DNA of 52,422 nt from positions 1-52,422 of the forward strand of contig QMQQ01000001.1 of the NCBI GenBank assembly GCA_003648985.1. Reading direction: 5' to 3'. Shown piece after piece: positions 6,251 to 50,994 of the stretch. Positions within the stretch are counted from its first letter, which is position 1, and each line of letters starts with the position of its first letter. The notes beneath the pieces are model-generated. The model was not told the origin of the DNA and ran no database searches. It was given only the letters and a program-made list of their open reading frames with translations. The DNA comes from Candidatus Woesearchaeota archaeon. Lineage in GTDB: Archaea > Nanobdellota > Nanobdellia > Woesearchaeales > B54-G15. Position numbers and translations under genes: made by a program.

Positions 6251-6478
6251 ATGAAAAGGATCATGTTTGTAAGTGTATTGCTTTTAGTAATCTTGGGGCT
6301 GCTTGTAGCAGGATGTAAAGTGAAGGAAGAAAAAGTTGAAGAAAAACCTACCCCGACAGTGGACACTGAAGTTGGAGAAGTTGAGAGCAGCGTCGAGAAT
6401 GTTTCCCAAGTAGAAGAAGAGATTAATGTAAGTGAGTTAGAAGAGTTGGACGAGGCACTTGCTGAAATCGAATGGTAG
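6251..6478 (+). CDS. Small acidic putative lipoprotein (75 aa)
   Basis: Signal peptide MKRIMFVSVLLLVILGLLVAGC ending in the lipobox-like LVAG/C, followed by an E/V-rich region. Confidence 0.45.
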   Translation: MKRIMFVSVLLLVILGLLVAGCKVKEEKVEEKPTPTVDTEVGEVESSVENVSQVEEEINVSELEELDEALAEIEW

Positions 6479-11298: not shown

Positions 11299-11714
11299 AT
11301 AGAAAAAACATAAGATTAATTGAACTATTCAACAGAATTGAAGAGCATGTAAGCCAAGCAAAGGAACTTTTTTCAAAAGATTATAAAGAAGATAGAATTA
11401 TTTTCAATGCATTATGCATGGAATGTTTTCAGGCAATAAACTCAGCCATAGATCTTGGAGAAGAAATACTATCAATTGCGAATATTGGAATCCCAATCAC
11501 TTATAGAGATATATTCAATAAACTGTGCGATGCTGGATGGATTTCTAAAGAAATTACGAAATGCATATCTACTTTGATTTATTATAGGAATGTTATTTCT
11601 CATGAATATCATAAAATAACTTTTGAAGAATTAAAAGACGTTGTTGATAAACTAGATTGCTTAATTGATTTTTTGGCGCGTATAAAGAAAAAATTAGAGA
11701 AAATAAAAGATTAA
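11295..11714 (+). CDS. hepT: HEPN-domain (DUF86/HepT-like) toxin
   Basis: Rx4H motif in YRNVISHEYHKITFEEL near the C-terminus, all-helical, about 139 aa, directly coupled to the MNT gene. Confidence 0.8.
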   Translation: MNRKNIRLIELFNRIEEHVSQAKELFSKDYKEDRIIFNALCMECFQAINSAIDLGEEILSIANIGIPITYRDIFNKLCDAGWISKEITKCISTLIYYRNVISHEYHKITFEELKDVVDKLDCLIDFLARIKKKLEKIKD

Positions 11715-19222: not shown

Positions 19223-20193
19223 GCCATGCATAAGTAGAGGCTTGGGCTGTTGGGAGCTGCATGCTGAACGCCTCGCCGAAGCTCGGCGCTTACACATCAG
19301 CTCCATCAACCTCCTGTTTTAAGGAGGGCCCAAAAGGTGCCTCTTTTTGAGGAGGGCTTCGTCCTTAGATGCCTTCAGGACTTATCCCTATGGCGCGTGG
19401 CTGCCCGGATTTGCCCTGTCGGACATCCGGTAGACCAGAGGCGCCGAAAGCTCGTTCCTCTCGTACTAGAGCTTCCTTCCTCTCAGGCACCCAACATCCC
19501 CAGTAGATATCAAACAAACTGCCTCACAGCGTTCTGAACCCAGCTCATGATCCCTTTTGATCGGTGAACACCCGCACCCTTGGCTCCTTCTGCAGAGCCA
19601 GGATAGGAAAAGCCGACATCGAAGTAGCAAGCCGCGCCGTCGATGTGAGCTCTCGGGCGCGACGACTCAGTTATCCCCGGGGTAACTTTTTGGTCATCCC
19701 AGGGCCCCACCAAGGGGCACACTGAGGTTCGCTAGGCCAGCATTTCTGCCCTGCGTTCTATCTTAGTAAGAACACAGTCAGGCCAGCTTTTGCCCTTGCA
19801 CTCTACCCCGGATTTCTAACCCGGGTGAGCTGACCTTTGGGCCCCGCTGATATCTTTTCAGCGGGGTGCCGCCCCAGCCAAACTGTCCACCTACCGGTGT
19901 CCTTCCTTTCGGAAGTAAGCAGCACAAACAGTGAAGGGTGGTGTTACATTGGCGCCTAAGATGCTGTCCAAAAACAGCATCCTCAAACAGCTCCCACCTA
20001 CACTATGCAACACTGCTTGCACTGCAGCGGCAGGCTACAGTAAAGTTCCACGGGGTCTTCGCTTCCCACTGGGGATCCCAGGCATTTGCACCTGGCAGGG
20101 TGTTCGGCGGGATCCGGCTTGGGACAGTGGCGACCTCGTTACGTCCTTCATGCAGGCCGGCATTCAACCGGCAAGGCATTTCGCTACCTTAAG

Positions 20194-20907
20194 CAGCTCG
20201 TAAGAGCCGGACCGTATCTTCATCTCCTTCATTAATCAGGAGATGCCCGGCGTACGGTCTCTGAGGATCCCATCAGAGGAAAAATTTCCTTGAGTTTGTA
20301 ACGTCGTTGTTTACCTTCCATGTTCATTTTATATGCCAGCTTTACTAAACGTTCAAAACCCTCGCGTGTTCTATGTTCCTTTCTTTCCATAGCTAAAATA
20401 ATTTCTCTGAACTTCTGATAATCGTTCCATTTTACTATTGGTTTATATTTGTCAAGGAAGTTAATTAATTTCTCTTTAAGTAATCTTCTGTTATCGATGA
20501 CAAACACTAAAAGATTTTTTTGGCCTGATTTTTCAATTATCCTTCCTGCATTTAGTGTTTTCTTCAGCAATTCTAGAACCACCCTGTTTTGTTTATGCTG
20601 TGTCAATGTAAATACTGGATCTAACACGTAACCGAATTTCGCTGTCTTTAGTTTTTTAATGCTTACTGAAAAGCAACCTTCTGCGTCTATGAATCCCAAC
20701 AAATAATATCTTAGGTATTTTCCTCTTTTTGGGATTCTGCTAAGCTCTATTATTCCATTATACTCCCATAAAGGCATTTTTCCACCTCCGATGGTTTCCT
20801 GCTGATTGTCATCATCGCTTCAGAATTTTTTCCTTGCTCAGGATTCTGAAGCTCAAACTTCCCAGCATATAGCCGGGTTTTACAACTCCCTTAGCCGCAT
20901 TTGGCTG
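20194..20907 (-). mobile_element. Group I-type intron in 23S rRNA (helix 69/70 region, near E. coli position about 1925), carrying a homing-endonuclease ORF
   Basis: The exons rejoin to the conserved GGGAGUAACUAUAACUCUC/UUAAGGUAGCGAAAUGCC. The U-1/omegaG boundaries, P1, P10 and the P3, P7-P3'-P8-P7'-P9 order are readable; see findings. Confidence 0.7.
20232..20777 (-). CDS. LAGLIDADG homing endonuclease (single-motif, I-CreI-like architecture), intron-encoded
   Basis: YYLLGFIDAEGCFSVSI is a single LAGLIDADG motif in a 181-aa protein. The ORF is AT-rich and embedded in GC-rich rRNA. Its last 9 codons run into the intron core helices. Confidence 0.9.
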   Translation of the reverse strand: MPLWEYNGIIELSRIPKRGKYLRYYLLGFIDAEGCFSVSIKKLKTAKFGYVLDPVFTLTQHKQNRVVLELLKKTLNAGRIIEKSGQKNLLVFVIDNRRLLKEKLINFLDKYKPIVKWNDYQKFREIILAMERKEHRTREGFERLVKLAYKMNMEGKQRRYKLKEIFPLMGSSETVRRASPD

Positions 20908-21726
20908 AGAGTTATAGTTACTCCCGCCGTTTACCGGTCCTTAACCTCCTTGGACAGAGGGTTCGGATACCGGCACCGGGCAGGCGTCACCGACCATACA
21001 CACCTTTGCAGGCTTGCGGTCGGATGCGTTTTTGTTAAACAGTCGGGCCACCCTTGTCACTGCGCCCTGCTTTCGCATCTCGGGGACACGAAAGCAGGGA
21101 CCCCTTCTACCGAAGATACAGGGCTAATTTGCCGATTTCCCTAAGCCGGATTAACCCTTCACGCCTTAGCCTTCTCAGCTAGGGGCACCTGTGCTGGTTC
21201 TGGGTACGGTTGCCGAGGATTTTTTCTTGCTCCTTTTTCAGGGGCTCCAGGAATCAGCTGAATCCTGCATAACAGGACTATTCCCAGGTTTACTCTGGTT
21301 CTCTGCATTACGCAACTCCCCAGAGTTATCCTGGTTAACATAGCAGACAAGCTATGTCAGCTTAACCTGAAGCGTCAGGAGCAAGACTTGCGTTGCCGCG
21401 CATACCTCGGCAGTAGGCGAATGTTAACGCCTTTCCCTTTCCCTGCTGTCCTGTTAGGAAGCAGGTTAGGACCGACTAACCCTTGGCTGATCGGCATTGC
21501 CAAGGAACCCTTGCCCTTTCGGCGGTGCCGATTCTCACGGCACTAAGATCCTACTACCGCCAGGATTCTCATTCCTACGAGGTCCACTCTCTCTTGCGAG
21601 AAAGCTTCTGCCCTCGCAGGACGCCCGCCTACCACACAGCCGAAGCTGATCTGCAGTATCGGTGACCAGCTTAACCCCGTCCATTTTCGGGACCCGCGAC
21701 CTCGACGGGTAAGCTGTTACGCACTT

Positions 21727-21758
<32 letters not shown>

Positions 21759-22384
21759 CCGCTGTCTCAGGCCGCGGACACCCTTCACCCTTTAATACTT
21801 AGCTGGCACTTTGGGACCTTAACTGCAGTCTGGGTTGTTCCCCTCTCGGAGCTCAAGTTTACCCCGAGCCCCTGTTTCCTTGCTTCTACGGTGCTGAAGC
21901 ATTCGGAGTTGGACAAGGAGGCGATCCTTTGCAGAACCCACACTCCCAATCCGTAGCTCTACCACTTCAGCTACCTCTGCAAGGACTTGACTACGGCCAA
22001 TTTCGGCGGGAACCAGCTATCACCAGGCTCGATTGGCTTTTTACCCCTACTCCCAGGTCATCCGAACGCTTGCCCGCAGCACCGGTTCGGACCTTCACCT
22101 TCTGCTAAGAAGGCTTCATCCTACCCAGGAGTAGATCGCCCGGTTTCGGGTCGTAGCTGAGTGACTTGAGGCCCTTTCAAACCTCGCCCCTTGCAGCAAA
22201 AGCTGCTGCGGGCTTTTTGCTTTCGCTATGGGTATTGTCTGCACAAGACATTACCCTCGCCACTCAACTACACTCCCTGGCCCGTTATTCGAAACGGACA
22301 GTGCAACTTCTCAGCAAAAGCTGAAAAGCCGCACCTTCCTGTTGCTGTTAGGTTTCAGGCTCTTTTCACTCTCCGGCAAGAGTT

Positions 22385-22422
<38 letters not shown>

Positions 22423-22981
22423 GCTCTATGAGTATTTAGGGTTGGATGTTGGTGGCACCCAGCTTCCTGCCTAGTATCCAGTAGACAGTACTCAGGAATT
22501 GCCCGACTTCTCTTTGAGTTACTCCTACGGGGCTTTCACCCTCTATGGCGTCCCATTCCAGGGAACTTCGGATTTCCCAAAGAGAAGCCATGCGGGCAAT
22601 CCACCACACCACATCGCTATTCGCATTGCTGCGAACAGCTTCGGTTTGCCCTGTGCCCCTTTCATTCGCCATTACTCAGGGCATCCCTGTTGGTTTCTTT
22701 TCCTGCCGGTACTAAGATGTTTCAATTCCCGGCGTTCCTGATCCTTTCGGATCATTCCTTAGCGGAATGCGAAGTCGCATTCAGGAATCCTCGGTTCTAA
22801 GCCTGCGTGCGGCTCGCCGAGGCTTATCGCAGCTTGCCACGCCCTTCATCAGCTATAGAGCCAAGCCATCCACCTAACAGCTTCTTGCCTCTACCTATGC
22901 ATGGCCTCATCAACATAATGTCTTGGCCCTTTGTTCAGGATTGCAAAATCCTGAACTGCATCTAAAGTAAAACAATGAATA

Positions 22982-29264: not shown

Positions 29265-29370
29265 TGGGCCCGCGGGGATTTGAACCCCGGACCTCCGGTT
29301 AGCCTAGACCCCTCTGTATAGAGCACGGCCATATAAGACCGGCGCTCTAACCAGGCTAAGCTACGGGCCC
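29265..29370 (-). tRNA. tRNA-Ile(UAU) with a 31-nt canonical (37/38) intron
   Basis: The reverse complement reads GGGCCCG-TA-GCTT..GAGC-G-CCGGT-CTTATA[31 nt]A-ACCGG-AGGTC-CGGGG-TTCAAAT-CCCCG-CGGGCCC-A. A BHB can be drawn: CTTA pairs with TAGG, with bulges TA|T and CT|A. Confidence 0.85.
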
Positions 29371-35066: not shown

Positions 35067-35486
35067 ATGCCGGTTGTGGGATTTAATTTTACAAAACTAT
35101 CTGCTGAAAGAGGAAGAATAACAAGAGGAAAGATAAGCATTAATAATAACATCGGAATAGTAGATGTAAAAGAAGCTACTGCTTTAGCAGGTGGGAAACA
35201 AAAAGGAGTGGTTTTTGTTGTTTCTTTTGAAACTGAGTATAAGCCTGATATTGGAAAGATTGGCTTGGAAGGAGAAGCATTGTTCATTGGTAAAGCAGAA
35301 AAGGTTGATGAGATAATGAACGAATGGAAAAAGAATAAAAAGATTCCCAGTGATATTGCTAAAGGTGTGATTGTTCTGTCTTTAAACAAGTGCAATGTAG
35401 AGGCTCTTTTATTAAGCAAAGAGCTGGGACTTCCTGCGCCGATACCTCTGCCAAGGATAGATGTGAAAGAGGTAAAGAAGAAATAG
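35067..35486 (+). CDS. Hypothetical protein (139 aa)
   Basis: Well-formed ORF with a soluble beta-rich N-terminal half. No family confidently recognised. Confidence 0.5.
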   Translation: MPVVGFNFTKLSAERGRITRGKISINNNIGIVDVKEATALAGGKQKGVVFVVSFETEYKPDIGKIGLEGEALFIGKAEKVDEIMNEWKKNKKIPSDIAKGVIVLSLNKCNVEALLLSKELGLPAPIPLPRIDVKEVKKK

Positions 35487-38118: not shown

Positions 38119-39414
38119 ATGTCAAGGAAGAAAGTCGAGGCTGGTGATGAAGTAGAGATTATATTAAAAGATGGAACTCGATACAAGGGTATTTTAATGC
38201 CCAGACCTGCTTTATACAAAGACGATCATGTTGTTCTAAAACTTCCGAATGGGTATAACATTGGAATAGAGAAGAAGAAGGTTAAAGAAATAAAACTCGT
38301 CAAAAAATACGAAGAGAAAAAAGCAAAAAAAGAAAAAACAAAGAAGAATCCTTCTTTGCCAAACGTTCTGTTGATTAGCTGCGGTGGAACAATAAGCAGC
38401 AGGGTTGATTACAGAACAGGGGGCGTTTATGCTGATTATACAGCTGAGGATTTTGTTGCAATGTGTCCTGAATTAGCTGAAATAGCCAACATAGACGCAA
38501 AGCAATTAATGCAAATCATGAGTGAAGATATGAATCATGAAGAATGGATTAAAATTGCTGAAGCTGTTTTTGATGCATTGCAGCGTTATGATGGCGTTGT
38601 TGTTACTCAGGGAACTGACACATTGCATTACACAACTGCTGCCCTTTCCTTTTTCCTCAGGAACATTGGAAAGCCCGTCATTGTTACTGGTGCCCAAAGA
38701 AGTATTGACAGGCCAAGCAGTGATGCTTTTATGAATTTGATTTGTTCTGTTATTGCTGCGAAAAGCGACCTCGCAGGAGTTTATTGCTGCATGCATGGAA
38801 CAATAAACGATGATTTTTGTTATTTGCTTAGAGGAACAAAGGTTAGAAAGATGCACACAAGCAGAAGAGACGCCTTCAGACCCATCAATGATTTGCCAAT
38901 GGCAAAAATTTTTCCTAGCGGTAAATTAGAGCTCATCCAAAGTTGTCCAAAGAGAACAAATAACATTGGAAAGCTGGAGGCTTTCTTTGAGCCAAAAGTT
39001 GCACTGGTTTATGTTTATCCTGGGATGGATCCTGAAATCATTTCATTTTACAGAAAAAAGAAATTCAAAGGACTTGTACTCGCTGCAACTGCGTTAGGAC
39101 ATGTTCCAACAAGCAAAAAAAGATATAGTCTTATTCCTGAATTAAAGAAAGCAATAGCTGATGGAATGATTGTTGTGATTGCGAGTCAAACACTTTATGG
39201 AAGGGTTCATCCTTATGTTTATACAAATTTAAGAAAACTTTCAATGGAGCTTGGTTGTGTTTTTGCAAGCGACATGTTGCCAGAAGCTGCTTATATTAAA
39301 CTCGGATGGTTGCTCGGAAAGTACAGGGATAAAGAAAAAATAAAAGAATTGATGCAGTATAACTTTGCTGGAGAAATAAATGATAGACATCTTCCAGATA
39401 TGTTTTTATTTTAA
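38119..39414 (+). CDS. gatD: Glu-tRNA(Gln) amidotransferase subunit D
   Basis: The N-terminal beta domain is followed by an asparaginase-like domain with ISCGGTISS and VVTQGTDTL. Confidence 0.92.
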   Translation: MSRKKVEAGDEVEIILKDGTRYKGILMPRPALYKDDHVVLKLPNGYNIGIEKKKVKEIKLVKKYEEKKAKKEKTKKNPSLPNVLLISCGGTISSRVDYRTGGVYADYTAEDFVAMCPELAEIANIDAKQLMQIMSEDMNHEEWIKIAEAVFDALQRYDGVVVTQGTDTLHYTTAALSFFLRNIGKPVIVTGAQRSIDRPSSDAFMNLICSVIAAKSDLAGVYCCMHGTINDDFCYLLRGTKVRKMHTSRRDAFRPINDLPMAKIFPSGKLELIQSCPKRTNNIGKLEAFFEPKVALVYVYPGMDPEIISFYRKKKFKGLVLAATALGHVPTSKKRYSLIPELKKAIADGMIVVIASQTLYGRVHPYVYTNLRKLSMELGCVFASDMLPEAAYIKLGWLLGKYRDKEKIKELMQYNFAGEINDRHLPDMFLF

Positions 39415-39421
39415 TTTTTAA

Positions 39422-39655
39422 ATGCGGTTAGTAGATTTACTTAATAAAATACGTTGGGACGAACACGAAAATGAAGAGGATTATGAAGTTTGGATTTATG
39501 ACAGGATTGCTAAAAAGGAAAAGAAGATTGCTTTCAAAATGATAGCAAACATCGGAAAGAGCTTTATTGAGCTTATTGATAGCACTGAAATTCCGCTGCA
39601 CAGGATAAGAAAAATTGTTAAGAGAGGTGAGGTTGTTTGGGAAAAGAGAAGATAG
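39422..39655 (+). CDS. DUF504/UPF0248 (MJ1316-like) small protein
   Basis: LLNKIRWDE...YEVWIYDR...IPLHRIRKIVKRGEVVWEKR matches the DUF504 pattern (kIkWD ... iP.HRI ... g.vvW.R). Confidence 0.6.
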   Translation: MRLVDLLNKIRWDEHENEEDYEVWIYDRIAKKEKKIAFKMIANIGKSFIELIDSTEIPLHRIRKIVKRGEVVWEKRR

Positions 39656-41052
39656 ATTATGCTAAGATTGGCTTTAAATGCGGTCTGGAAATACATCAAC
39701 AGCTTGAAGGAAAAAAACTCTTTTGCCAATGCAGTACTGCCAATGTTCAACTAAAACCAGATATTTTTGCTGAAAGAAAACTAAGAGCTGTTGTTGGTGA
39801 AACAGGAATTGTTGATAAGGCAGCTGCTTTTGAAGCTGCAAAGGGAAAACTGTTTTTGTATAAGGCACATAGTTCTGATTGCTGCTTAGTTGAGCTAGAT
39901 GAAGAGCCACCGCATCCAATAAATCCTGATGCTGTAAAGGTTGCTGTTACAGTAGCTAAACTTCTCAATGCAAAGCTCGTTGACGAGATTCAGGTGATGA
40001 GAAAGACAGTGATAGATGGAAGTAATGTTACAGGATTTCAAAGAACAGCACTCGTTGCGCTTAATGGCTGGATTGAAACAAGCAGGGGAAAGGTTAGCAT
40101 TCCTACAATTTGCCTTGAGGAAGAAGCTGCTCAGAAAATCGAAGAAAGCGAAAAAACAACTACATACAAGCTTGATAGGCTTGGAATTCCATTGATAGAA
40201 ATAGCAACAGGCCCTGAAATCAAAGATCCGGAACATGCAAAAGAGGTTGCTGAAAAGCTCGGCTTGATTCTGAGAAGTGTAAAAGGCGTTAAAAGAGGCA
40301 TAGGAACTATAAGACAGGATGTAAATCTTTCGATAAAAGGTAGGGCGAGGGTTGAGATAAAGGGATTTCAGGATTTAGAAAGTATTCCAAAAATCATTGA
40401 ATATGAGGTTAGGAGATTGCTTTCGTTGAAGGAAAGAAACGAACCAGAAGTAAGAAAGGCAAATCCTGATGGAACAACTTCCTTTTTAAGGCCGATGCCA
40501 GGTGCAGCAAGGCTTTATCCTGAAACTGATATTCCTCCATTCAAGATTGATTTTGAGGTTGAGCTGCCTGAATTGATAGAAGAGAAAATAAAGAGGTATG
40601 AAAAACTCGGATTAGATAGAGATTTGGCAAAAGCTATTGCTAAGTCTAAAAAGAGTAAATTATTTGATGCTGCTTTAGAAAAGACAAAGTTAAAACCGGG
40701 CTTTGTTGCTGAAGTTATATTTTCCAAACCAAAAGAATTGCAGAGGGAAGATGTTGCAGTTGAAAAAATAAGCGAAGAAGTATTTTTGAAATTGCTTGGA
40801 TATTTAGCTGAAGAAAAAATAGCGAAGGAAAGCGTTGAGCTTGTGCTGAAGGATGCTGCACAAGAAAAGCTTGACTTCAAGAAATACTTTGTTCTGAGCG
40901 ATGCTGAGTTAAAAAAAGAATTGAAAAGGATTGTAGATGCAAATCCAGGACTGCCTTTCAAAGCGTTAATAGGAAAAGCAATGCAGAAGTTAAGGGGAAA
41001 AGCGAGCGGAAGAAAAATAGCCGAGTTCCTAAAAGAACTTCTTAAAAGATAA
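39637..41052 (+). CDS. gatE: Glu-tRNA(Gln) amidotransferase subunit E (short form, 471 aa)
   Basis: A TTG start follows a GAGAGGTGAGG RBS. Motifs: YAKIGFKCGLEIHQQL, VIDGSNVTGFQRTALVA, LDRLGIPLIEIATGPE, RGIGTIRQDVNLSI. Confidence 0.88.
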   Translation: MGKEKIDYAKIGFKCGLEIHQQLEGKKLFCQCSTANVQLKPDIFAERKLRAVVGETGIVDKAAAFEAAKGKLFLYKAHSSDCCLVELDEEPPHPINPDAVKVAVTVAKLLNAKLVDEIQVMRKTVIDGSNVTGFQRTALVALNGWIETSRGKVSIPTICLEEEAAQKIEESEKTTTYKLDRLGIPLIEIATGPEIKDPEHAKEVAEKLGLILRSVKGVKRGIGTIRQDVNLSIKGRARVEIKGFQDLESIPKIIEYEVRRLLSLKERNEPEVRKANPDGTTSFLRPMPGAARLYPETDIPPFKIDFEVELPELIEEKIKRYEKLGLDRDLAKAIAKSKKSKLFDAALEKTKLKPGFVAEVIFSKPKELQREDVAVEKISEEVFLKLLGYLAEEKIAKESVELVLKDAAQEKLDFKKYFVLSDAELKKELKRIVDANPGLPFKALIGKAMQKLRGKASGRKIAEFLKELLKR

Positions 41053-41273: not shown

Positions 41274-44072
41274 TTACCTTACTTCTATGCCGCCTAAACG
41301 TTTAAACATGCTTAAGCCAAATCTGAGTTTTTCTTTGCTATGCGCATAGAGTGTAAAGATTGGTTCGTCCTTTAAAACAGATTCGCCCTCATGTTTGTAA
41401 AGAAACATGCCTGCATCTTTGTCTTTTGGTGCGCCTGCTGCTCTTGCCATTTTTCTGACAGAGATGCAATCGATATTTGCTATATGGCCTGTCCTTGGTG
41501 CTCTATATGTATATTTAAATGGACCTGGAACAAGATCCTCTGGTTTTATGTTCGGGTCACCTCCTTGAGCTTCTATGATTTCTTTCATTTTTTTATATGC
41601 CTCACCCGATTTAAGGATATTAATTACTTTCTGATGGGCTTTTTTTTCACCGACCATTTCAAGAAGCAAAGTAGCCATTTTAACTGCTTTTCGTTCCAGA
41701 TCGCGAGGTCTTCTTGGATCACGCATTAAAGTCCAGAGTATTGTCTTTGCTTCTAAGATTGGACCTATTCCATTGCCAATCGGTTCTTTTCCATCACTGA
41801 GCATTACTCTTATGTTCATACCTAAATTTTTTCCAACAAGTTTAAACTTTTTTTCCAGGCTTAGAGCTCTTGTTCTGGTTTTAATCTTTGTTTCTTTTCC
41901 TAACGGGATGTCTATCAAGACATGCGTAGCTCCGACAGCAGCTTTTTTAGCAAGTATTGAAGCTAAAAGCATTCCTTCTGGGTCAAGAGCTAAAGGATCG
42001 CGCAATTTAATCAATTTATCATCAGCTGAAGCAAGTTCCATTGCTCCGCCCCAGACTATGCAACCATTTGTTTTTAATACAATTTTTTTCATTTGTTCAA
42101 GCGTTAAAGCCACTGGTGCAAGAACTTCCATTGTGTCAGCGGTTCCTGCTGGACTAGTTATGCTCCTGCTGCTCGTTTTTGGTATGGTATAACCAGCAGC
42201 AGCGATTATTGGAACAATGAGCATTGATGTCCTATTTCCAGGGACGCCGCCACTACAATTATGAACGCATATTGGTGCAGATCCAACCATAAACTTGTTG
42301 AATCCATCAATTTTGAAATCATAAACATATTTTGAGTCTGATTTTATTTTTTTGATATTTTTTACTTCAAGTACAGACAAATGACCTGTAAGTAATTTCT
42401 TAACATCCTCGCTTTTGATATAATTCATTACGCTAAGCAATTTCTCTTTTGTCATAAATTTTTGTCTTTTTAGACATCTCCTGAACTCCCAACCAACACT
42501 TTTTGTTTCTATCTCTCCGCATTCTTTTATTGGTATAAGATTAATATAAGCGACGTTTGATTTCTTTCTTCCGCCAAACAAGTTCCTCGCCTGGGTGTAA
42601 ATCGTATAAGCAGTAGCTGTCATATATTTTCCACTCGGGAATCTACGTTGAGACTTATTTTTAATAGAAAGTGTTGACGACATACCCAACATGGATAATA
42701 AGTATTGTAGCTCAATAGCAAGTTTTTTTGATACAGTAACATAAGCCGTTTCATATCCACGCCTTGTATGTCCGTCGCACTTGAAAAGCGTTCTAAGAAA
42801 TTCTAATTTCATTTCATCACTAACATCAAAGAGAAAAGAAGGTATGCTCTTTTCTAAAGCTTTTTTTCCAACTTTAAGAGCGTGAAGAATAGAAGACAGA
42901 TTTTGACTATATATAGTAACTCTAACAGCTGTTTTGTGTGGATAGTTAATTGTAGGTTTGATTTTGAATACCTTCTTAATACAGTATATCGCATCTTTGA
43001 TCAGATCTTTCTCATGCGAACCAAAATTTAGAAAGACTCCTTGATAATTCGCAAATCCTTCTGTGATATAGTATCCAAGAAAACGTATAAATTCTGGAGT
43101 TATTTTAATTACGTTTTTGAATTGCTTGCCTCTTTTTTTGGTCTTTACATTTAGTTCAATCTCTTTTATAGGTTTATCGTTTTTTAAACCCGAAGGGACA
43201 ATAACAAAATCGCCTTTTTTTAAAGAACATGCAGGTATGTTTTTTATCTTACCTTTTTTTAGAACAAAAATAGTATGATCGGGAGTGACTTTAATAGTTC
43301 TGTTTCCTCTTAAAGTAATGAGGTATAAATATCTAGGAGAGGGTGCCCTAAATACACCAGAAACAGGTTTGAATTCAACTTCTCCAGCTTCATTGTAAGT
43401 TAGCGCACAAAGGCCATTCAAGTTTTTTGATGTAAATTCAGCTCCGTCTTTATAAACAATATCAGCAGGATCACATTGCGCAAAAATATTGTCTATTACT
43501 TCTCCTATTGATTTAACTTTAACACTGCCGCTGTTTCTAATCATGACTGGAACATCCCATGATAAACAATGCTTATCAAGGATTGGATGTCTATTAAGCT
43601 TTAATTTTCCGCCATAATGGACTATTGCCTTTGTTAGGTTAACTGTCTCATCTAAAGTCATGCCTTTCGTATAGCATGCGCCGATAAAATATGTAAGTTC
43701 AACTTGACTAAGTTTATCTTCAACCAATTCTTTTATTATTTCAAATATTTCTTTTCGTTTAAGCGGAATTCCGTCTAACTTTTTTTTGATGGCGAAGACG
43801 CCAGAAGGTTTTGGCCTTAAATCGATATCAACAATATCGCCATCTTTCACATTCAGCTTCTTTAGAACTTCTTCAAACAAGCCTATATGCCCTTTTGGAA
43901 CTGCTTTTTCAGTTTGAGCAATATCAACTATCGCTGTTGTTTCACGTTTTCTGAATTTTATTTTTATACGGTCTTCTGAAAATAAATCAAGCCTTCGAGC
44001 ATCTTCCTCATTAAGCACAGCTATTAGTATGCCTCCAGTTGCTATGTCCATGTCTCTTACAACGAGCTTCAA
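41274..44072 (-). CDS. deoA: AMP phosphorylase (thymidine phosphorylase family, DeoA) interrupted by an intein
   Basis: The N-terminal MKLVVRDMDIATGGILIAVLNEEDA domain is typical of archaeal AMPpase. The catalytic motif ILDKH / CSGGVPGNRTS is split by 437 aa. The extein total of 495 aa is a normal length. Confidence 0.9.
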   Translation of the reverse strand: MKLVVRDMDIATGGILIAVLNEEDARRLDLFSEDRIKIKFRKRETTAIVDIAQTEKAVPKGHIGLFEEVLKKLNVKDGDIVDIDLRPKPSGVFAIKKKLDGIPLKRKEIFEIIKELVEDKLSQVELTYFIGACYTKGMTLDETVNLTKAIVHYGGKLKLNRHPILDKHCLSWDVPVMIRNSGSVKVKSIGEVIDNIFAQCDPADIVYKDGAEFTSKNLNGLCALTYNEAGEVEFKPVSGVFRAPSPRYLYLITLRGNRTIKVTPDHTIFVLKKGKIKNIPACSLKKGDFVIVPSGLKNDKPIKEIELNVKTKKRGKQFKNVIKITPEFIRFLGYYITEGFANYQGVFLNFGSHEKDLIKDAIYCIKKVFKIKPTINYPHKTAVRVTIYSQNLSSILHALKVGKKALEKSIPSFLFDVSDEMKLEFLRTLFKCDGHTRRGYETAYVTVSKKLAIELQYLLSMLGMSSTLSIKNKSQRRFPSGKYMTATAYTIYTQARNLFGGRKKSNVAYINLIPIKECGEIETKSVGWEFRRCLKRQKFMTKEKLLSVMNYIKSEDVKKLLTGHLSVLEVKNIKKIKSDSKYVYDFKIDGFNKFMVGSAPICVHNCSGGVPGNRTSMLIVPIIAAAGYTIPKTSSRSITSPAGTADTMEVLAPVALTLEQMKKIVLKTNGCIVWGGAMELASADDKLIKLRDPLALDPEGMLLASILAKKAAVGATHVLIDIPLGKETKIKTRTRALSLEKKFKLVGKNLGMNIRVMLSDGKEPIGNGIGPILEAKTILWTLMRDPRRPRDLERKAVKMATLLLEMVGEKKAHQKVINILKSGEAYKKMKEIIEAQGGDPNIKPEDLVPGPFKYTYRAPRTGHIANIDCISVRKMARAAGAPKDKDAGMFLYKHEGESVLKDEPIFTLYAHSKEKLRFGLSMFKRLGGIEVR
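42258..43568 (-). mobile_element. Intein (Hint splicing domain plus two-motif LAGLIDADG homing endonuclease), 437 aa
   Basis: It begins with Cys (CLSWDVPVMI, codon 169). Two LAGLIDADG motifs are present (FLGYYITEGFANY, EFLRTLFKCDGH). It ends ...APICVHN and is followed by the +1 Cys (CSGGVPG). Confidence 0.88.
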
Positions 44073-45301: not shown

Positions 45302-46573
45302 ATGTTCAATTTTTTAAAGAAACTCTTTATGGGAAAGCGTTCAGGTATAGCCGTTGTTATTGGATTAAATCAGATCAATGACGAGTTAAATAAACACTAT
45401 GAAAATGTTGTAAGTAAGATAGAAAAACGGATTTCTAACCTAGAAAATCTTTTCTCAAACTATGTTGATTCTTTAGCGCAGATGGCAGAGCAGCTTAGAA
45501 ATGCTGAAATAAAATTAAAAATTGATGAAAAAACCAAATCCATTGTTATTTCTCAGAGAGAGAATTATTTGAAACATTTAAACTTATTAATTGAGCAGCT
45601 TAAATCAATTAAATTATCAAATGTCGATGAGTTCGCAAAAGGTATTTTTTTGGTTGAAACTAAGCTTAATGCTTTTTTTAAAAGCGCGGTAAGAAGTAGG
45701 GAATTAGCTAAACATTTATTTTTTGATGAGATTGAGGGTGTTGACAAAGCACTAAATTTTATACGGAGATTGATAGAAAACAGTAAGGCTGTTTTAGAAG
45801 AGAATAATGTCTTGCTTTTTTATAAGTTAAGAGAGAAATATGAAGCGTTCAAATCTGTTTCGACTAAAAGAAAAGAGGTTGCAGATTTGATTTTAGATGC
45901 AAAGAAAAAACTTGTTGAACTTGGGCGTGAAAAGGAATCACTTGAACATGAATTAGAAGCACTTAAACACGACCCAAAATTTAGTGAATTTACTCTCTTG
46001 CAAAAAGAAAATGATGAACTTGAATATACTATTGAGCGATTAAAATCAAAAACACTTGAATTGTTTTCTCCTATCCAAAGGCCATTGAGGAAATTTTCAA
46101 GGATTGTTTCAGAAAAAGAGGACATTAAGTTGATTGAGGCTTATCTAAGAGGCCCTTTTGATGCTTTGATTTCTGATGAGAAGTTGAGAATTTTAAAATT
46201 GTTAGCCGATTTAAAGCGGTGTGTTTCTATTGATCAAATTGATTTAAAAGATAAAAAGAAGGAAACTGTTTTCAATAACATAGAAAAGATTAATTTTTCT
46301 GTGCTGAATTCAATTCTTGAAGATTATAAATCAATTTGTGAAAAGAAGACGCTGGTCAAAAAGAAGTTGTACAATAATCAAATAACATTAAGAAAAAAAG
46401 AGATTCAATATCGGCTTGAATATATTGATGCAAAAATAAGGGAAGAAAAGGAAAAATTGCTGCGCGCTGAAGAGCGGAAGAAACGACTTGACGAGGAGTT
46501 TTTTCCTTTAAAAAGAGAATTTGAAAATGACTTGGGAAAATTTCTTGGCAAAGAAGTGACGATAAGTTTTTAA
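45302..46573 (+). CDS. Hypothetical coiled-coil protein (423 aa)
   Basis: Long ORF with strongly helical K/E/L composition. No family recognised. Confidence 0.5.
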   Translation: MFNFLKKLFMGKRSGIAVVIGLNQINDELNKHYENVVSKIEKRISNLENLFSNYVDSLAQMAEQLRNAEIKLKIDEKTKSIVISQRENYLKHLNLLIEQLKSIKLSNVDEFAKGIFLVETKLNAFFKSAVRSRELAKHLFFDEIEGVDKALNFIRRLIENSKAVLEENNVLLFYKLREKYEAFKSVSTKRKEVADLILDAKKKLVELGREKESLEHELEALKHDPKFSEFTLLQKENDELEYTIERLKSKTLELFSPIQRPLRKFSRIVSEKEDIKLIEAYLRGPFDALISDEKLRILKLLADLKRCVSIDQIDLKDKKKETVFNNIEKINFSVLNSILEDYKSICEKKTLVKKKLYNNQITLRKKEIQYRLEYIDAKIREEKEKLLRAEERKKRLDEEFFPLKREFENDLGKFLGKEVTISF

Positions 46574-46598
46574 AAAGAAAATCAGATATTTCTTTTAC

Positions 46599-46786
46599 AG
46601 CCCCGTGGTGTAGCGGTCAAGCATCCAGGCCTTTGGAGCCTGGGACGGCGGTTCGAATTAACCCTTTCCGCCAAACTTTTAGAAAAAGTTTGATCAAAAA
46701 CGGAAAAAGTGCACCTTCGGTGCAACCAAACTTTTAGAAAAAGTTTGATCAAAAACGGAAAGGGAACGAAAATCCGCCCGGGGCTA
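46599..46786 (+). tRNA. tRNA-Gln(UUG) with a 115-nt intron in the T-loop (59/60)
   Basis: AGCCCCG-TG-GTGT..CAGGC-CTTTGGA-GCCTG-GGAC-GGCGG-TTCGAA[46658..46772]T-CCGCC-CGGGGCT-A. The mature length is 73 nt. The BHB comprises the central helix TTCG/CGAA, two AA|T bulges and the outer helix CCCTTTCCG/CGGAAAGGG. Confidence 0.8.
46671..46761 (+). repeat. Perfect 36-nt direct repeat (2 copies, 55-nt period) inside the tRNA-Gln intron
   Basis: CCAAACTTTTAGAAAAAGTTTGATCAAAAACGGAAA occurs at 46671..46706 and 46726..46761. Each copy contains the hairpin AAACTTTT-AGA-AAAAGTTT. The spacer holds the hairpin GCACC-TTC-GGTGC. Confidence 0.9.
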
Positions 46787-46864
46787 TTTACTACATTAGT
46801 TCTGACTCTGCGAGCCCACTTTAAAGAACAAAACATTTAAATAAATAGAATTAGTACTAAACTT

Positions 46865-47383
46865 ATGATGAAAACGAAAAACAAAAGATTGATTTATGCT
46901 TTGATTATTGCACTCGCTATTATAGGGGTTGTTTTGTTTGTGTATTTAAGCAAATCAGCAATTACCCAGAGAGAAGTAGAAGAAATTACAGCACCTGCAA
47001 TAGAAGAAGAATTTCCTGAAAAAGAAACAGGTATTCCCAATCCTGCTAGTGTTTATTGCGAAGATTTAGGATACAATTACGTAATAAGAACTAACCCTAA
47101 AACTAAAGGACAATATGGAATATGTATTTTTCCTGATGGAAATGAATGTGAGGAGTGGGAATTTTATAGAGGAAAATGTGGACAAAAATTTACTTTTTGT
47201 GAACAACAAGGATTTAGAATAGAAAACAGAATTGATAATATGGGTACTTGGACTGCAGAATATGCTGTTTGTATTTTTGATGATGGTTCTGAGTGTCTGG
47301 AACAGGCTTATTTTGATGGTAAATGTAATCCTTCTGAATGTAAAAAATGGAAAATGTCAGAAGGCGGATGTATAAAATCTTAA
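46865..47383 (+). CDS. Exported protein with two DUF333 (putative hemolysin, COG3042-like) repeats
   Basis: A signal/TM segment is followed by NPASVYCEDLGYNYVIRT...GICIFPDGNECEEWEFYRGKCG. A second copy follows: FCEQQGFRIE...AVCIFDDGSECLEQAYFDGKC. Confidence 0.65.
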   Translation: MMKTKNKRLIYALIIALAIIGVVLFVYLSKSAITQREVEEITAPAIEEEFPEKETGIPNPASVYCEDLGYNYVIRTNPKTKGQYGICIFPDGNECEEWEFYRGKCGQKFTFCEQQGFRIENRIDNMGTWTAEYAVCIFDDGSECLEQAYFDGKCNPSECKKWKMSEGGCIKS

Positions 47384-47391
47384 TGATTTTC

Positions 47392-47482
47392 AGCGGACTT
47401 GCAACTCGGAATTTTTGCCTTCGGGAACGTTGCATTAAAATTCCGTCTTCCCTTCGGTCAGAGGCTTCTTGCGCAAAACAAG
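47392..47482. ncRNA. Candidate structured RNA / regulatory element in a GC-enriched intergenic stretch (unclassified)
   Basis: Two helices are mutually exclusive: GCAAC(47401-05)/GTTGC(47428-32) and CGGAATTTT(47407-15)/AAAATTCCG(47437-45). There are two CCTTCGG elements and a 7-bp hairpin CTTCTTG-CGCAAAA-CAAGAAG. Confidence 0.2.
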
Positions 47483-47532
47483 AAGATTTAAGTAAAATGT
47501 TTTAATTATCCTATGCAAGAGGTGAAAAAAAG

Positions 47533-47817
47533 ATGTTATCAAAAATACCTGCAAATCTTGAGAAAATAAAAAAAGAGGATTTGGACAAAGAGATACTAAG
47601 AATTGGAATAATAGCTGAATTGGATGCTATAAATCTTTATGAGCAAATGGCAGCTATGACTGAAAACGAAAATATTAGGAAAGTTCTTTTGGATATAGCA
47701 AAAGAAGAGAAGACACATGTAGGTGAGTTTCAAACTTTACTATTAAAAGAAGATAAAGAACAAGAAAAAGAGTTAGAAGAGGGTAAAAAAGAAATTGCTG
47801 AATTAACTGATAAATAA
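47533..47817 (+). CDS. Small ferritin-like / rubrerythrin-like four-helix protein (EncFtn-like)
   Basis: ELDAINLYEQMAAMTENENIRKVLLDIAKEEKTHVGEF has the E...Y and EExxH spacing seen in small ferritin-like/encapsulated-ferritin proteins. 94 aa. Confidence 0.5.
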   Translation: MLSKIPANLEKIKKEDLDKEILRIGIIAELDAINLYEQMAAMTENENIRKVLLDIAKEEKTHVGEFQTLLLKEDKEQEKELEEGKKEIAELTDK

Positions 47818-47944
47818 CCAGTAGCGACATTTCTTGGTTCAGTTTCGATTTCGAATTCGATATATTTATAAATGAATGCTAGATCTTGAACAAAAAGCTT
47901 AACATTCTCACGCCGAGAGGCGTGATAATTAGTTGGATGATAAA

Positions 47945-48379
47945 ATGGTAGGCGTGTTCGATGTTTACCCAAATGATTTGATCGAGAAGGCTGCTGAAGA
48001 ACTGAAGAAAGTTTCAGAGATAAAGCCGCCAGAATGGGCAAAGTTTGTTAAAACGGGTGTTCATAAAGAAAGGCCCCCTGCAGATCCTGATTGGTGGTAT
48101 AAAAGGGTTGCCGCAATTCTAAGAACGATTTACGCAAGAGGTCCGATTGGAGTAAGTAAACTGCGGACAAAATATGGAGGAAAAAGAAGAAGGGGTCATA
48201 AAATGCCCCATCATAGGAAAGGTAGCGGTAGCGTGATAAGAAAAGCATTGCAGCAGCTTGAAAAAGCCGGTTTAGTGGAGCAATCAAAAGATAAGTTGAG
48301 AAAAGGACGAATAATTACAGCAAAAGGAAAAAGTTTTCTTGATAAGATTGCTATAGGTCTTTTAAAGAAGCAAAAATAA
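47945..48379 (+). CDS. rps19e: Ribosomal protein eS19
   Basis: MVGVFDVYPNDLIEKAAEELKK..PPEWAKFVKTGVHKERPP..PDWWYKRVAAILRTIYARGPIGVSKLRTKYGG. Confidence 0.9.
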   Translation: MVGVFDVYPNDLIEKAAEELKKVSEIKPPEWAKFVKTGVHKERPPADPDWWYKRVAAILRTIYARGPIGVSKLRTKYGGKRRRGHKMPHHRKGSGSVIRKALQQLEKAGLVEQSKDKLRKGRIITAKGKSFLDKIAIGLLKKQK

Positions 48380-48555: not shown

Positions 48556-48975
48556 ATGAGTTTTCCAATACATCGTGAGGAGAGATTCGTGGAGATGAAT
48601 AGGAAAAAATTAGAGGATTTATTGTTTGCTTTTAATAGCATTGCTAAGAAAGCAAGAATTCCGAGAGAGGTTTTTAGAGAAATGCTAAAAAAGAATGATG
48701 TTCCAAAAGAATTGCAGCAACCACTAGAACGAGCTGTTTATGGACGCTCTAAATATGTCGGCCTTGGCAGAGAAGTTCCTGTTGGAAATTGTGTTGGAGT
48801 ACTCGATAAATATTTCGGAGGATGGTGTTGTTTAAGCCTTACTGAAACAGTAGGATATTTCAGTTTAGGTTTGTTGGTTAAATTTGGAGCTTATATTTAC
48901 AATATTATTCATAGCATTTATAATGCGGTTAGCACTATTTTGCCTTTCAATTTATACAAAAAGAAAAATGCCTGA
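48556..48975 (+). CDS. Hypothetical protein with C-terminal hydrophobic segment, inserted between rpl39e and rpl31e
   Basis: ORF of 139 aa (the start may be the internal MNRKK). No family recognised. It overlaps the rpl31e start by 8 nt. Confidence 0.4.
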   Translation: MSFPIHREERFVEMNRKKLEDLLFAFNSIAKKARIPREVFREMLKKNDVPKELQQPLERAVYGRSKYVGLGREVPVGNCVGVLDKYFGGWCCLSLTETVGYFSLGLLVKFGAYIYNIIHSIYNAVSTILPFNLYKKKNA

Positions 48976-49441
48976 AGAAAAAACGCTTGAAAGGATATAT
49001 GTAGTTCCGCTTAGAAAAGAATGGTTAAAAGTAGCCCATTATAGAAGGGCAGAAAAAGCTGTAAGGGCAGTGAAGGCTTTTGTAGCTAAGCATATGAAAG
49101 TCGCACTTGAAGATGTTAAGCTCGGGAAATATTTGAACGAAGCTATTTGGCAACGTGGTGCAAAGAGACCTCCTCACAAGATAAAAATCATTGTTAAGAA
49201 AGAGAAAGAAAAGGCTTTTGCTGAGCTTGAAGGTTATGAAAAATTAAAGGAAAAAGAAGAAATGAAGTTAAAGAAAAAGAAAAAGGAGGTTGAAAAAGGA
49301 AAAGAAAAAGAAGAAATGAAAGTCGAAAAGAAAGAACAAAAAGAAGAAAAAGCTGAAAAAAAGCGAAAAGAAGAAAAGACTGAAAAAGAAAAGGAAGAAG
49401 TAATTAAATCTAATTCTGATGAAAATAAAAGAGCTGTGTGA
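48968..49441 (+). CDS. rpl31e: Ribosomal protein eL31 with about 70-aa K/E-rich C-terminal extension
   Basis: MPEEKTLERIYVVPLRKEWLKVAHYRRAEKAVRAVKAFVAKHMK...NEAIWQRGAKRPPHKIKIIV is the eL31 core. A low-complexity K/E tail follows. Confidence 0.85.
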   Translation: MPEEKTLERIYVVPLRKEWLKVAHYRRAEKAVRAVKAFVAKHMKVALEDVKLGKYLNEAIWQRGAKRPPHKIKIIVKKEKEKAFAELEGYEKLKEKEEMKLKKKKKEVEKGKEKEEMKVEKKEQKEEKAEKKRKEEKTEKEKEEVIKSNSDENKRAV

Positions 49442-50375
49442 AGATTTTATAGTATATGAAGTTCCGTTGATTGAAAAATTAAAGGTAAAAGGAAAATTCA
49501 CTTATTTTGTTTTAATGAAAAAAGACTACACAACGATTTCTGCTTTAAAGCTTGTGTCAAAGAAGGTTAAAATTCCTTTGAAATATTTTGGATTTGCTGG
49601 AAATAAAGATAGACATGCAGTAACATTTCAGCTTTGTTCTGTAAAGTTTGCTGGGGTACAAAGACTTAAGAATGTACCTTTAAGAGACATAAGGGTTGTT
49701 CCTGTAGGAAAAGGCGATAAGCCAATCAAGCTTGGCGATTTAAAAGGAAATTATTTCAAGATTACTGTAAGAAATCTCGATAAGGAGATCACTATAAAAG
49801 AAAAGGACATACCAAATTTTTTTGACGAGCAAAGATTTGGAAAAGAAGGGATAAATATCCACATAGGAAAGTTGCTTGTCAAAAAACAATTTTGTGATGC
49901 TGCGTCACTGATAAAAAATAAAGAGATTGCAAAGCATCTAGAGAAATATCCCAAAGATTGCGTTGGTGCATTGAGAAGGATTCCTCGCCAACTTTTAAAG
50001 TTGTATGTTCATGCTTATCAAAGCTGGTTGTGGAATGGGTGTGCAAGAAAGGTAATAGAAAAAGGCACAGGAAGTGACATTATGGCGCCCATTATTGGGT
50101 TTGGTACTGAGCTAGAAAAATATTCTGATTTGATAAGAAAGGTTGTGGAAGAACGAATGAAAGAAGAGAACATAACTATGAGAGATTTTGTTTTTCACCA
50201 AATTCCTGAATTGAGCGCAGGCGGTGATGATAGAGCGCTATTCGTTAGACCAAAGATAATTGACTATAAATATGCAACTGATGAATTGCATAAGGGAAAG
50301 AAAAAATTGACGATTAAATTTTTTCTTCCAAAAGGAAGCTACGCAACAAATGTAATTAAATTTCTCCTCGAATGA
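49419..50375 (+). CDS. truD: tRNA pseudouridine synthase TruD/Pus7-like
   Basis: FGFAGNKDRHAVTFQ (catalytic Asp motif GxKDxxAxTxQ), FDEQRFG, and the C-terminal LPKGSYATNVI. Confidence 0.85.
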   Translation: MKIKELCEDFIVYEVPLIEKLKVKGKFTYFVLMKKDYTTISALKLVSKKVKIPLKYFGFAGNKDRHAVTFQLCSVKFAGVQRLKNVPLRDIRVVPVGKGDKPIKLGDLKGNYFKITVRNLDKEITIKEKDIPNFFDEQRFGKEGINIHIGKLLVKKQFCDAASLIKNKEIAKHLEKYPKDCVGALRRIPRQLLKLYVHAYQSWLWNGCARKVIEKGTGSDIMAPIIGFGTELEKYSDLIRKVVEERMKEENITMRDFVFHQIPELSAGGDDRALFVRPKIIDYKYATDELHKGKKKLTIKFFLPKGSYATNVIKFLLE

Positions 50376-50994
50376 TTTTTAGTATCTGTTTGCTCGCCCT
50401 TTTAGATGCAGTAAATCCGTTTTCTGTGCTGATGTTAATTACTCTATCTCCATAGTATTCAAGTACAGGTTCTGTCTGTTCTTTATAGATTTTCAATCTT
50501 TCGCGAATTGCTTCTGGTTTATCATCTTCACGCTGGATTAGAGCAGTACCACACTGGTCGCATATCCCTGGTGTCTTCGGAGGCATAGAAATCAAATTAT
50601 AGATTGCACCGCATTTTGGACAAATTCTTCTATTGCTTAATCTTCTTATGATTTCATCTTCGGATAAAACAAAATTAAAAATATAATCTATTTTGAACGT
50701 CCTGTCAAGGGTTTTTGCTTGTTCGACATTTCTCGGGTAACCATCAAGAATAAATCCATTTTTGCAGTCGGGCTTTTCTATTCTTCGTTTTAGTACTTCA
50801 AGCACAAGATCGTCTGGAACAAGTTCGCCTCGATCCATATATGACTTCGCTTTAATACCAAGGTCTGTTTTATTCTTGACTTCTTCTCTTAGAAGATCCC
50901 CGGTTGAGATATGTGGAATTCCTAGCTCTTTTTTAACTATAGAAGCTATGGTTCCTTTTCCGCTTCCTGGAGGACCAAAAAAGACTATTATCAT
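50356..50994 (-). CDS. adk: Adenylate kinase (long, zinc-lid type)
   Basis: P-loop FFGPPGSGKGT, GDLLREE, ILDGYPR, and the lid CPKCGAIYN...CDQCG. Confidence 0.93.
   Translation of the reverse strand: MIIVFFGPPGSGKGTIASIVKKELGIPHISTGDLLREEVKNKTDLGIKAKSYMDRGELVPDDLVLEVLKRRIEKPDCKNGFILDGYPRNVEQAKTLDRTFKIDYIFNFVLSEDEIIRRLSNRRICPKCGAIYNLISMPPKTPGICDQCGTALIQREDDKPEAIRERLKIYKEQTEPVLEYYGDRVINISTENGFTASKRASKQILKIIRGEI

Follow-up and report, generated by a model that had tools for sequence, protein, structure and literature searches.

A tRNA-Gln(UUG) gene with a probable bulge-helix-bulge intron at position 59/60 in a DPANN archaeon

Position 59/60, in the T-loop, is among the listed non-canonical sites of archaeal tRNA introns (PMC4090602). 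In ARMAN-2, a DPANN archaeon, introns occupy this site in tRNA-Cys and tRNA-Pro, and the tRNA-Cys intron is cleaved in vitro by the archaeon's own endonuclease (PMC3239211). DPANN and Asgard genomes are reported to carry many disrupted tRNA genes together with loop-bearing endonucleases, hence the incomplete tRNA sets predicted for them, and splicing endonucleases (EndA) of the alpha4 type with an L3 loop have been reported in related DPANN lineages (PMC5829648). Here we describe the tRNA-Gln(UUG) gene on a 52,422-nucleotide stretch of DNA from a Candidatus Woesearchaeota archaeon (contig QMQQ01000001.1; the whole stretch is referred to as the window). The gene extends over 188 nucleotides (nt), from 46599 to 46786 on the plus strand, and is interrupted by 115 nt at position 59/60. 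We conclude that it is very probably a functional gene of a DPANN archaeon, with one intron of the bulge-helix-bulge (BHB) type that would be removed by the splicing endonuclease.

The locus resembles the ARMAN-2 genes in its 59/60 site, in the use of the T-stem as the outer helix, in the pairing of the T-loop with the 3' end of the intron and in the predicted cuts within 3-nt bulges. Both hosts are DPANN archaea, and standard tRNA finders miss the gene in either case. On the other hand, the tRNA here is tRNA-Gln-UUG, the intron has 115 nt instead of the 13 nt in ARMAN-2, and a perfect 36-nt repeat lies inside it. The ARMAN-2 tRNA-Cys intron has an hBH motif whose cleavage was demonstrated, whereas the motif described here comes close to a strict hBHBh' and is known from sequence. 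Introns at 59/60 are already documented, DPANN archaea included; the present gene adds another case and no new mechanism.

Variation over short time scales has been described elsewhere in archaea. The tRNA-Thr gene of Caldiarchaeum subterraneum is heterogeneous for the presence or absence of an intron within an archaeal population (PMC3293823), and intron transposition is known from Thermoproteales (cited in PMC4090602). As in those systems, close genomes vary here in the presence and the form of the intron on a short time scale. In contrast to them, the intron has no linked recombinase or mobile element, its absence from two relatives (L026 and L021, see below) is precise, and its forms of 60, 112 and 115 nt involve internal duplication.

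Anatomy of the gene and fold of its junctions

The gene is composed of two exons and the interrupting segment.

46599 to 46657, plus strand: 5' exon of tRNA-Gln(UUG), tRNA positions 1-59, 59 nt, identical in the relatives L003, L021 and L026; it holds the 5' strand of the acceptor stem, the D-arm, the anticodon arm, the 5' strand of the T-stem (46647-46651) and T-loop nt 54-59
46658 to 46772, plus strand: intron of 115 nt at tRNA position 59/60, the excision of which gives a 73-nt tRNA-Gln; identical in the independent assembly L001
46773 to 46786, plus strand: 3' exon of 14 nt, with U60, the 3' strand of the T-stem (46774-46778), the 3' strand of the acceptor stem (46779-46785) and the discriminator A46786

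The 5' exon reads AGCCCCG-UG-GUGU...GCAU-C-CAGGC-CUUUGGA-GCCUG-GGAC-GGCGG-UUCGAA, with the anticodon TTG at 46633-46635, and the 3' exon reads U-CCGCC-CGGGGCU-A; a CCA end is not encoded. A preliminary description of the locus had placed both parts and the insert at exactly these coordinates, and had claimed that removal of the insert restores a 7-nt T-loop and a perfect 7-bp acceptor stem. Joining 46599-46657 to 46773-46786 indeed yields 73 nt that ARAGORN calls as tRNA-Gln(ttg), with a 7-bp acceptor stem, the T-loop TTCGAAT and all stems intact. The same 73 nt occur uninterrupted in the metagenome relative L026, where they score 60.4 bits on the Rfam tRNA model RF00005 (gathering score 29).

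The unspliced gene is called neither by ARAGORN, in its default mode or with -i, nor by Rfam at the gathering threshold. In its E-value mode, Rfam matches only part of the tRNA, at 18.1 bits, and the match ends in the T-loop. The preliminary description had warned that a standard scan may miss the gene, and had proposed ARAGORN with introns as a check. With this check run, the warning holds for ARAGORN and for Rfam, but non-canonical BHB introns are part of the default search of tRNAscan-SE 2.0 (PMC8450103).

Four segments are predicted to build the junction.

46652 to 46658, plus strand: 5' half of the BHB, with the strand TTCG at 46652-46655 and the bulge A58, A59 and U at 46656-46658; cut after 46657
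46767 to 46773, plus strand: 3' half of the BHB, with the strand CGAA at 46767-46770 and the bulge A, A and U60 at 46771-46773; cut after 46772
46662 to 46670, plus strand: 5' strand of the intron helix P1, CCCTTTCCG, paired with 46756-46764
46756 to 46764, plus strand: 3' strand of P1, CGGAAAGGG, which completes a 9-bp helix in the fold

The fold of minimum free energy (MFE) of the 188-nt precursor coincides with the centroid fold at -72.4 kcal/mol, which corresponds to z = -5.3 against 200 shuffled sequences (mean -50.3, standard deviation 4.2 kcal/mol). The predicted fold contains the acceptor and anticodon arms, and the D-stem in part only. The T-arm is replaced by the T-stem GGCGG/CCGCC with the pairing of UUCG (nt 54-57) and CGAA (46767-46770) stacked directly on it. 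On the intron side, P1 takes the form CCCUUUCCG/CGGAAAGGG in the precursor RNA, 46662-46670 pairing with 46756-46764 over 9 bp. A clean 3-nt AAU bulge is present at the 3' site (46771-46773) in both the MFE and the centroid fold. Both cuts would fall after the second bulge nucleotide, leaving the T-loop UUCGAAU in the product. Where the preliminary description spoke of a symmetric BHB, the T-stem, the TTCG/CGAA helix, the AAU bulges, the 9-bp helix and the symmetric cut sites all stand, with the one qualification that the 5' bulge is slightly relaxed and appears in the predicted fold as a 6x2 loop.

Since the T-arm, too, has a 5-bp stem and a 7-nt loop, the geometry is that of the canonical 37/38 intron on the anticodon arm. 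As in a canonical hBHBh' intron, such as that of the window's own tRNA-Ile(UAU), the stem has 5 bp, the first four loop nt enter a 4-bp central helix, loop nt 5 and 6 form the 5' bulge with the first intron nt, and EndA and the ligase RtcB are the presumed enzymes. The difference lies in the site. On the T-arm, neither the T-loop nor its contact with the D-loop (the tRNA elbow) can form before splicing.

A BHB alone is not evidence of an intron, because a permissive scan of this AT-rich window yields thousands of chance matches; such a loose scan of the whole window was rejected as evidence. As a blind control, each of 482,338 candidate segments with a 4-bp central helix was spliced out and ARAGORN was rerun. 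This procedure recovered the tRNA-Gln locus with the same splice sites and, outside the known tRNA genes, otherwise yielded only the intron-bearing tRNA-Ile. The window contains an archaeal small-subunit rRNA gene, a large-subunit (LSU) rRNA gene and eight tRNA genes recognised by standard tools. No further tRNA-Gln gene was found in it by ARAGORN, Rfam or splice-and-rescan.

The junctions also bear on other kinds of interrupted gene. Neither a self-splicing intron (group I or II) nor a tRNA assembled in trans from split or permuted halves has anything in its favour beyond the bare interruption of the tRNA gene, and we put the probability of such an explanation at virtually nil. The 115 nt are too short for a ribozyme intron, which needs about 200 nt at minimum, and no Rfam intron family matches at the gathering threshold or at E <= 10. 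Meanwhile, the two halves are colinear on the plus strand, 115 nt apart, with BHB junctions, which argues against splitting or permutation.

Homologous loci and turnover of the intron

We scanned one genome per prokaryotic species for the D-arm and anticodon loop of tRNA-Gln(UUG), followed by GGTTCRAA and then by a continuation other than the normal one. The pattern is specific to tRNA-Gln, and the scan is silent on whether 59/60 introns prefer this tRNA. It returned 16 loci. The T-loop is broken exactly at 59/60 in all 16, and every one of them splices to a 73-nt tRNA-Gln(ttg). Given that the 16 introns range from 29 to 175 nt, the length of 115 nt is not exceptional. The hosts are as follows.

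L002, L005, L006 and L016: Woesearchaeota-labelled hosts, 59/60 intron
L007, L010 and L011: Nanoarchaeota-labelled hosts, 59/60 intron
L008: Aenigmatarchaeota-labelled host, 59/60 intron
L004, L012, L014 and L015: hosts labelled as members of Asgard groups, 59/60 intron
L013: unclassified host, 59/60 intron
L003, L009 and L017: metagenome-assembled genomes (MAGs) labelled "Methanosarcinales", 59/60 intron; the label is doubted, at least for L003, and not used as evidence

The last three are third-party-annotation (TPA) MAGs that bear the label "uncultured Methanosarcinales archaeon", yet their tRNA-Gln genes are DPANN-like. For L003 the label looks wrong, because this locus is syntenic with the DPANN-like window at about 86-90% identity.

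Covariation was assessed on 15 distinct sequences and motifs were compared over 17 loci. Pairing in the cloverleaf reaches 96.5% over the 15 spliced sequences, and 10 of its pairs covary. For the BHB central helix, which the search did not require, 98.3% of cells are paired among the 15 homologue sequences. Double changes turn G57-C into A57-U (TTCA/TGAA in the gene, UUCA/UGAA in the RNA) in L008 and L015, and G-U variants of the helix are found in L011, L013, L014 and L016. The 3' bulge reads nearly always A-N/U among the 17 loci (the slash marks the cut), with the exception of L017, which has U-G/U. The spliced product, the precursor fold and the 16 homologues with their covariation support what the preliminary description had proposed, namely a tRNA-Gln(UUG) with a BHB-type intron at 59/60; its designation of the site as non-canonical agrees with the list in PMC4090602.

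Some of the homologous loci have features of their own. A second tRNA-Gln(UUG) intron near position 10/11 accompanies the 59/60 intron in L002 (about 6388-6430, reverse strand), L009 (63-103) and L010 (1054-1078), in the context AGCCCCGURG / ... GCGGAR / UGUAG, where the slashes mark the borders; these introns have 14-32 nt and a relaxed motif only. In L010, part of the 5' exon is also present a second time, 20 nt upstream. In one Woesearchaeota MAG, L005 and L016 (NYYS01000051.1 and NYYS01000063.1) have identical tRNA-Gln(UUG) exons with 59/60 introns of 91 and 44 nt. This pair is either a true duplication or the result of two strains binned together.

The closest relatives came from a second scan, in which metagenome contigs were searched with a pattern built on the exons alone.

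L026: syntenic with the window, flanks 89% identical upstream and 93% downstream; no intron
L003: syntenic with the window, flanks 89.5% identical upstream and 86% downstream; 112-nt intron
L021: syntenic with the window, flanks 83% identical upstream and 85% downstream; no intron
L029: only the downstream flank in common with the window, 97% identical; 60-nt intron

The exons of the window, L003, L026 and L021 are identical at 73 of 73 positions, whereas the flanks are only 82-93% identical. Those of L029 show a 2-nt difference in the D-loop. In L026 and L021 the absence of the intron is precise. Because the orthologues combine identical exons with differing intron states, the exons are under selection and the intron turns over quickly. 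L026 groups with the window and L003, whose introns are clearly homologous, so that this cluster must have undergone one or more precise losses or, alternatively, a transfer.

The same comparison bears on whether the gene could be a pseudogene, that is, a tRNA-Gln gene inactivated by a 115-bp insertion such as a remnant of a small mobile element, with CAA read by a gene elsewhere. Intronless, exon-identical alleles at the orthologous locus (L026, L021) would fit this explanation, as would the perfect 36-nt direct repeat in the insert, which is a sign of recent rearrangement. In a decaying gene the exons should gather substitutions and broken pairs relative to the flanks, and we find the opposite: the exons are 100% conserved (73/73 in L003, L021 and L026, stems intact) beside flanks of 82-93% and a diverged intron interior. 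The insertion lies exactly at 59/60, and its BHB shows both conservation and covariation in 16 other species. The promoter-like box has stayed intact, the repeat is found nowhere else in the window or the fetched loci except in homologous introns, and ARAGORN, Rfam and splice-and-rescan find no other tRNA-Gln gene in the window. Since the exons remain perfectly conserved beside a rapidly changing intron, a pseudogene is strongly disfavoured, and we consider it very unlikely.

On the other hand, the intron might be more than quickly changing. The relatives form a Woesearchaeota-like cluster at the level of a genus (82-93% nucleotide identity), in which exon-identical genes have an intron of 115 nt, of 112 nt or none. 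Where the intron is missing, it is missing precisely; the long forms consist of duplicated modules, and introns at 59/60 occur in DPANN as well as in Asgard lineages. These observations would suit an actively turning-over, possibly mobile element, a view that we regard as rather doubtful; no dispersed copies of the 36-nt repeat, the central hairpin or the intron ends occur in the window or the fetched loci beyond the homologous introns. Turnover might proceed through reverse splicing, in which the endonuclease and ligase act first and reverse transcription or recombination comes after, or through gene conversion with copies of the spliced tRNA.

We notice that the DNA directly 3' of the tRNA-Gln gene (46789-47857) is an indel hot spot. 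Only the window and L029 have a DUF333 gene (46865-47383), and the L029 contig ends within it, retaining the gene start. A gene for an EncB-like ferritin (47533-47817) is shared by the window and L003, and is missing in L026 and L021. A search downstream for an att-like repeat of the tRNA 3' end, which might explain the indel region, found none.

Several points weigh against the reading of a functional, endonuclease-spliced gene. At the 5' site the AAU bulge has no adjoining stable helix: UAA (46659-46661) lies opposite AA (46765-46766), which gives the 6x2 internal loop of the MFE fold, and at best a single U46659-A46766 pair could close a 3-nt bulge, followed by a 2x1 mismatch. The predicted BHB is slightly relaxed at this site and not a textbook strict hBHBh', and an endonuclease confined to strict BHB motifs might cut it poorly. 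Neither EndA nor RtcB is found among the roughly 40 open reading frames (ORFs) of the window that were scanned with Pfam or NCBIfam, a set that leaves out about 6 ORFs (for example 35067-35486, 47933-48379, 48556-49441 and 50356-50994). The intronless alleles of close relatives mean that the intron is dispensable. In the homologue search, the 3' exon was required to be complementary in the T-stem and the acceptor stem, and those helices are paired partly by construction. Finally, splicing and its enzymes are what we infer from the anatomy, the fold, the covariation and the conservation of the exons and of the locus.

Interior of the intron

Between the junction elements, the intron is built of a duplicated module and a hairpin.

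46671 to 46706, plus strand: copy 1 of a perfect 36-nt direct repeat, containing the hairpin CAAACTTTT-AGA-AAAAGTTTG
46726 to 46761, plus strand: copy 2 of the repeat; L029 has a single copy and, with it, a 60-nt intron
46709 to 46724, plus strand: central hairpin GTGCACCTTCGGTGCA, common to the intron of the sister species L003 and absent from L029

The repeat unit is CCAAACUUUUAGAAAAAGUUUGAUCAAAAACGGAAA. Its two perfect copies, each with its own 9-bp hairpin, are spaced 55 nt apart, and the 19-nt spacer between them holds the central hairpin. The L029 intron equals the window intron with a single copy of the repeat and without the central hairpin. By this comparison, the window intron is best described as the 60-nt form of ancestral type, as in L029, enlarged by 55 nt that comprise the hairpin and a second perfect 36-nt copy. 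The 36-nt repeat has no other copy in the window or the fetched loci, homologous introns excepted.

A perfect repeat of 36 nt at 55-nt spacing is a structure that assemblers can create, so the locus could in principle be a mis-join, or a collapsed or expanded repeat within a normal tRNA gene. Such an artefact is extremely unlikely. The 188 nt and their flanks recur base for base in the NCBI assembly GCA_019322625.1 (L001), on a contig with different ends, and homologous introns with the same ends are present in two unrelated metagenome assemblies (L003 and L029). The 60-nt form has one copy of the repeat; only the copy number could be doubted, not the intron.

We read the interior, in which we detect no function, as fast-evolving, structure-rich filler, of which the sole constrained role is that of CGAA and the helix beside the bulges. 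The introns of L003 and the window have in common their first 16 nt, a central 24-nt block (one mismatch) and their last 16 nt, and differ in the arms. The central block holds the hairpin GTGCACCUUCGGUGCA, and within the two introns GGAAA(A/G)AGTGCACCTTCGGTGCAA is kept while both flanking arms have been replaced. This common segment is the one element of the interior without an explanation in the filler reading. Together with the high degree of structure of the intron, it would be expected if the intron were spliced and also carried a functional RNA, either a C/D-box guide small RNA (sRNA) or a stable circular RNA based on the central hairpin.

The tRNA-Trp intron of Haloferax volcanii provides a model of this kind: it has about 100 nt, is structured and removed at a BHB, lies at 37/38 and contains a C/D-box guide RNA. 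The tRNA-Gln intron differs from it by its position at 59/60 and by the lack of C/D boxes and of an Rfam match. Neither a C box (RUGAUGA) nor a D box (CUGA) is present in 46658-46772, and with the threshold relaxed to E = 10 the intron still has no match among the Rfam families. The only nearby Rfam snoRNA match, ceN108 (E = 1.8), is located at 46519-46582, upstream of the gene and outside the intron. The hairpin is absent from L029, the intron itself is absent from L026 and L021, and the hairpin is common to two sequences only, which are too few for a covariation test. A functional RNA in addition to a spliced intron is thus a quite improbable explanation in our view, and we retain the reading of the interior as filler.

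Genomic context, proposed pathway and implications

The surroundings of the gene contain a possible promoter, an antisense ORF and, further upstream, genes for an aminoacylation pathway.

46567 to 46576, plus strand: TTTTTAAAAA, resembling a TATA box and preceding the tRNA start by 23-32 nt; putative archaeal promoter
46582 to 46836, minus strand: antisense ORF of 84 amino acids (aa) over the tRNA gene; spurious, without an NCBIfam match (the only library scanned)
38119 to 39414, plus strand: GatD, 503.8 bits against a cut-off of 310
39422 to 39655, plus strand: MJ1316-family ORF between gatD and gatE
39637 to 41052, plus strand: GatE, 552.3 bits against a cut-off of 456

A similar A/T box precedes, by about 20-45 nt, those uninterrupted tRNA genes of the window that are promoter-proximal (Glu, Val-TAC, Arg, Ser, Val-GAC and Thr). 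The TTTTTAAAAA box overlaps the stop codon of the upstream ORF, and we suppose that it may function as the promoter. The 84-aa ORF had been dismissed in the preliminary description as spurious; it is present as described, and we share this judgement because it lacks an NCBIfam match and overlaps a conserved, structured RNA gene. The GatDE genes, likewise announced there, lie 5.5-8.5 kb upstream, and both proteins score above the curated cut-offs. Because GatD and GatE are confirmed, the tRNA-Gln would be charged by the indirect pathway. GatE has 471 aa, compared with models of 620-630 positions, and is matched in two stretches; it appears to be devoid of the middle insertion domain of typical GatE.

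Other interrupted genes are found in the window. The tRNA-Ile(UAU) gene (29265-29370, minus strand) is interrupted at the canonical site 37/38 by an intron of about 31-32 nt, and is missed by ARAGORN in default mode and found by Rfam. The presence of an isoleucine tRNA with the anticodon UAU suggests that AUA may be decoded without agmatidine. The LSU rRNA gene (19231-22897, minus strand) exceeds the length of the Rfam archaeal model by about 680 nt, and an ORF inside it (20232-20777, minus strand) encodes a 181-aa LAGLIDADG_1 homing endonuclease. Because of the extra length and this ORF, the gene probably contains an rRNA intron; a simple scan for strict BHB motifs found nothing convincing at the borders of the insert. 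Given the intron-bearing tRNA-Ile(UAU) and the LSU rRNA insert with its LAGLIDADG ORF, the organism probably processes such introns.

In addition, a 932-aa homologue of AMP/thymidine phosphorylase (41274-44072, minus strand) is broken by an intein with a LAGLIDADG endonuclease domain. A nucleotidyltransferase (Polbeta/NTP_transf_2) adjoins a HepT-like RNase at 10876-11714 on the plus strand, forming an MNT/HepT toxin-antitoxin module. Prolipoprotein diacylglyceryl transferase (Lgt), typically a bacterial enzyme, is encoded at 10027-10818 on the minus strand of this archaeal window, with 244.7 bits.

Based on these features, we propose the following pathway. Transcription would start from the TATA-like box about 25-30 nt upstream, and the acceptor, D and anticodon arms of the precursor would fold normally. 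T-loop nt 54-57 (UUCG) would pair with CGAA at the 3' end of the intron, and the resulting 4-bp helix, together with the T-stem on one side and the intron helix CCCUUUCCG/CGGAAAGGG on the other, could display two 3-nt AAU bulges. EndA would cleave each strand after the second bulge nucleotide, a ligase of the RtcB type would join the exons, and the intron would probably be circularised. After addition of CCA, the tRNA would receive Glu, and the Glu-tRNA(Gln) amidotransferase GatDE would turn the product into Gln-tRNA(Gln).

A genome annotated by ARAGORN or Rfam would seem to be without tRNA-Gln(UUG), and would show a false 84-aa ORF in its place. The same hidden structure is found in at least 16 other species representatives of DPANN and Asgard archaea, and because it recurs there, calls of a "missing tRNA" in these groups warrant a check for introns at 59/60. 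If the gene described here is the sole tRNA-Gln(UUG) gene, the decoding of CAA would depend on the splicing endonuclease, the ligase and GatDE. The series of loci with introns of 115, 112, 60 and 0 nt is a clean example of rapid intron turnover beside conserved exons, and bears on the gain, expansion and loss of archaeal tRNA introns. Should a defined mechanism underlie the gains and losses, this cluster would offer a natural setting in which to watch archaeal tRNA introns come and go.

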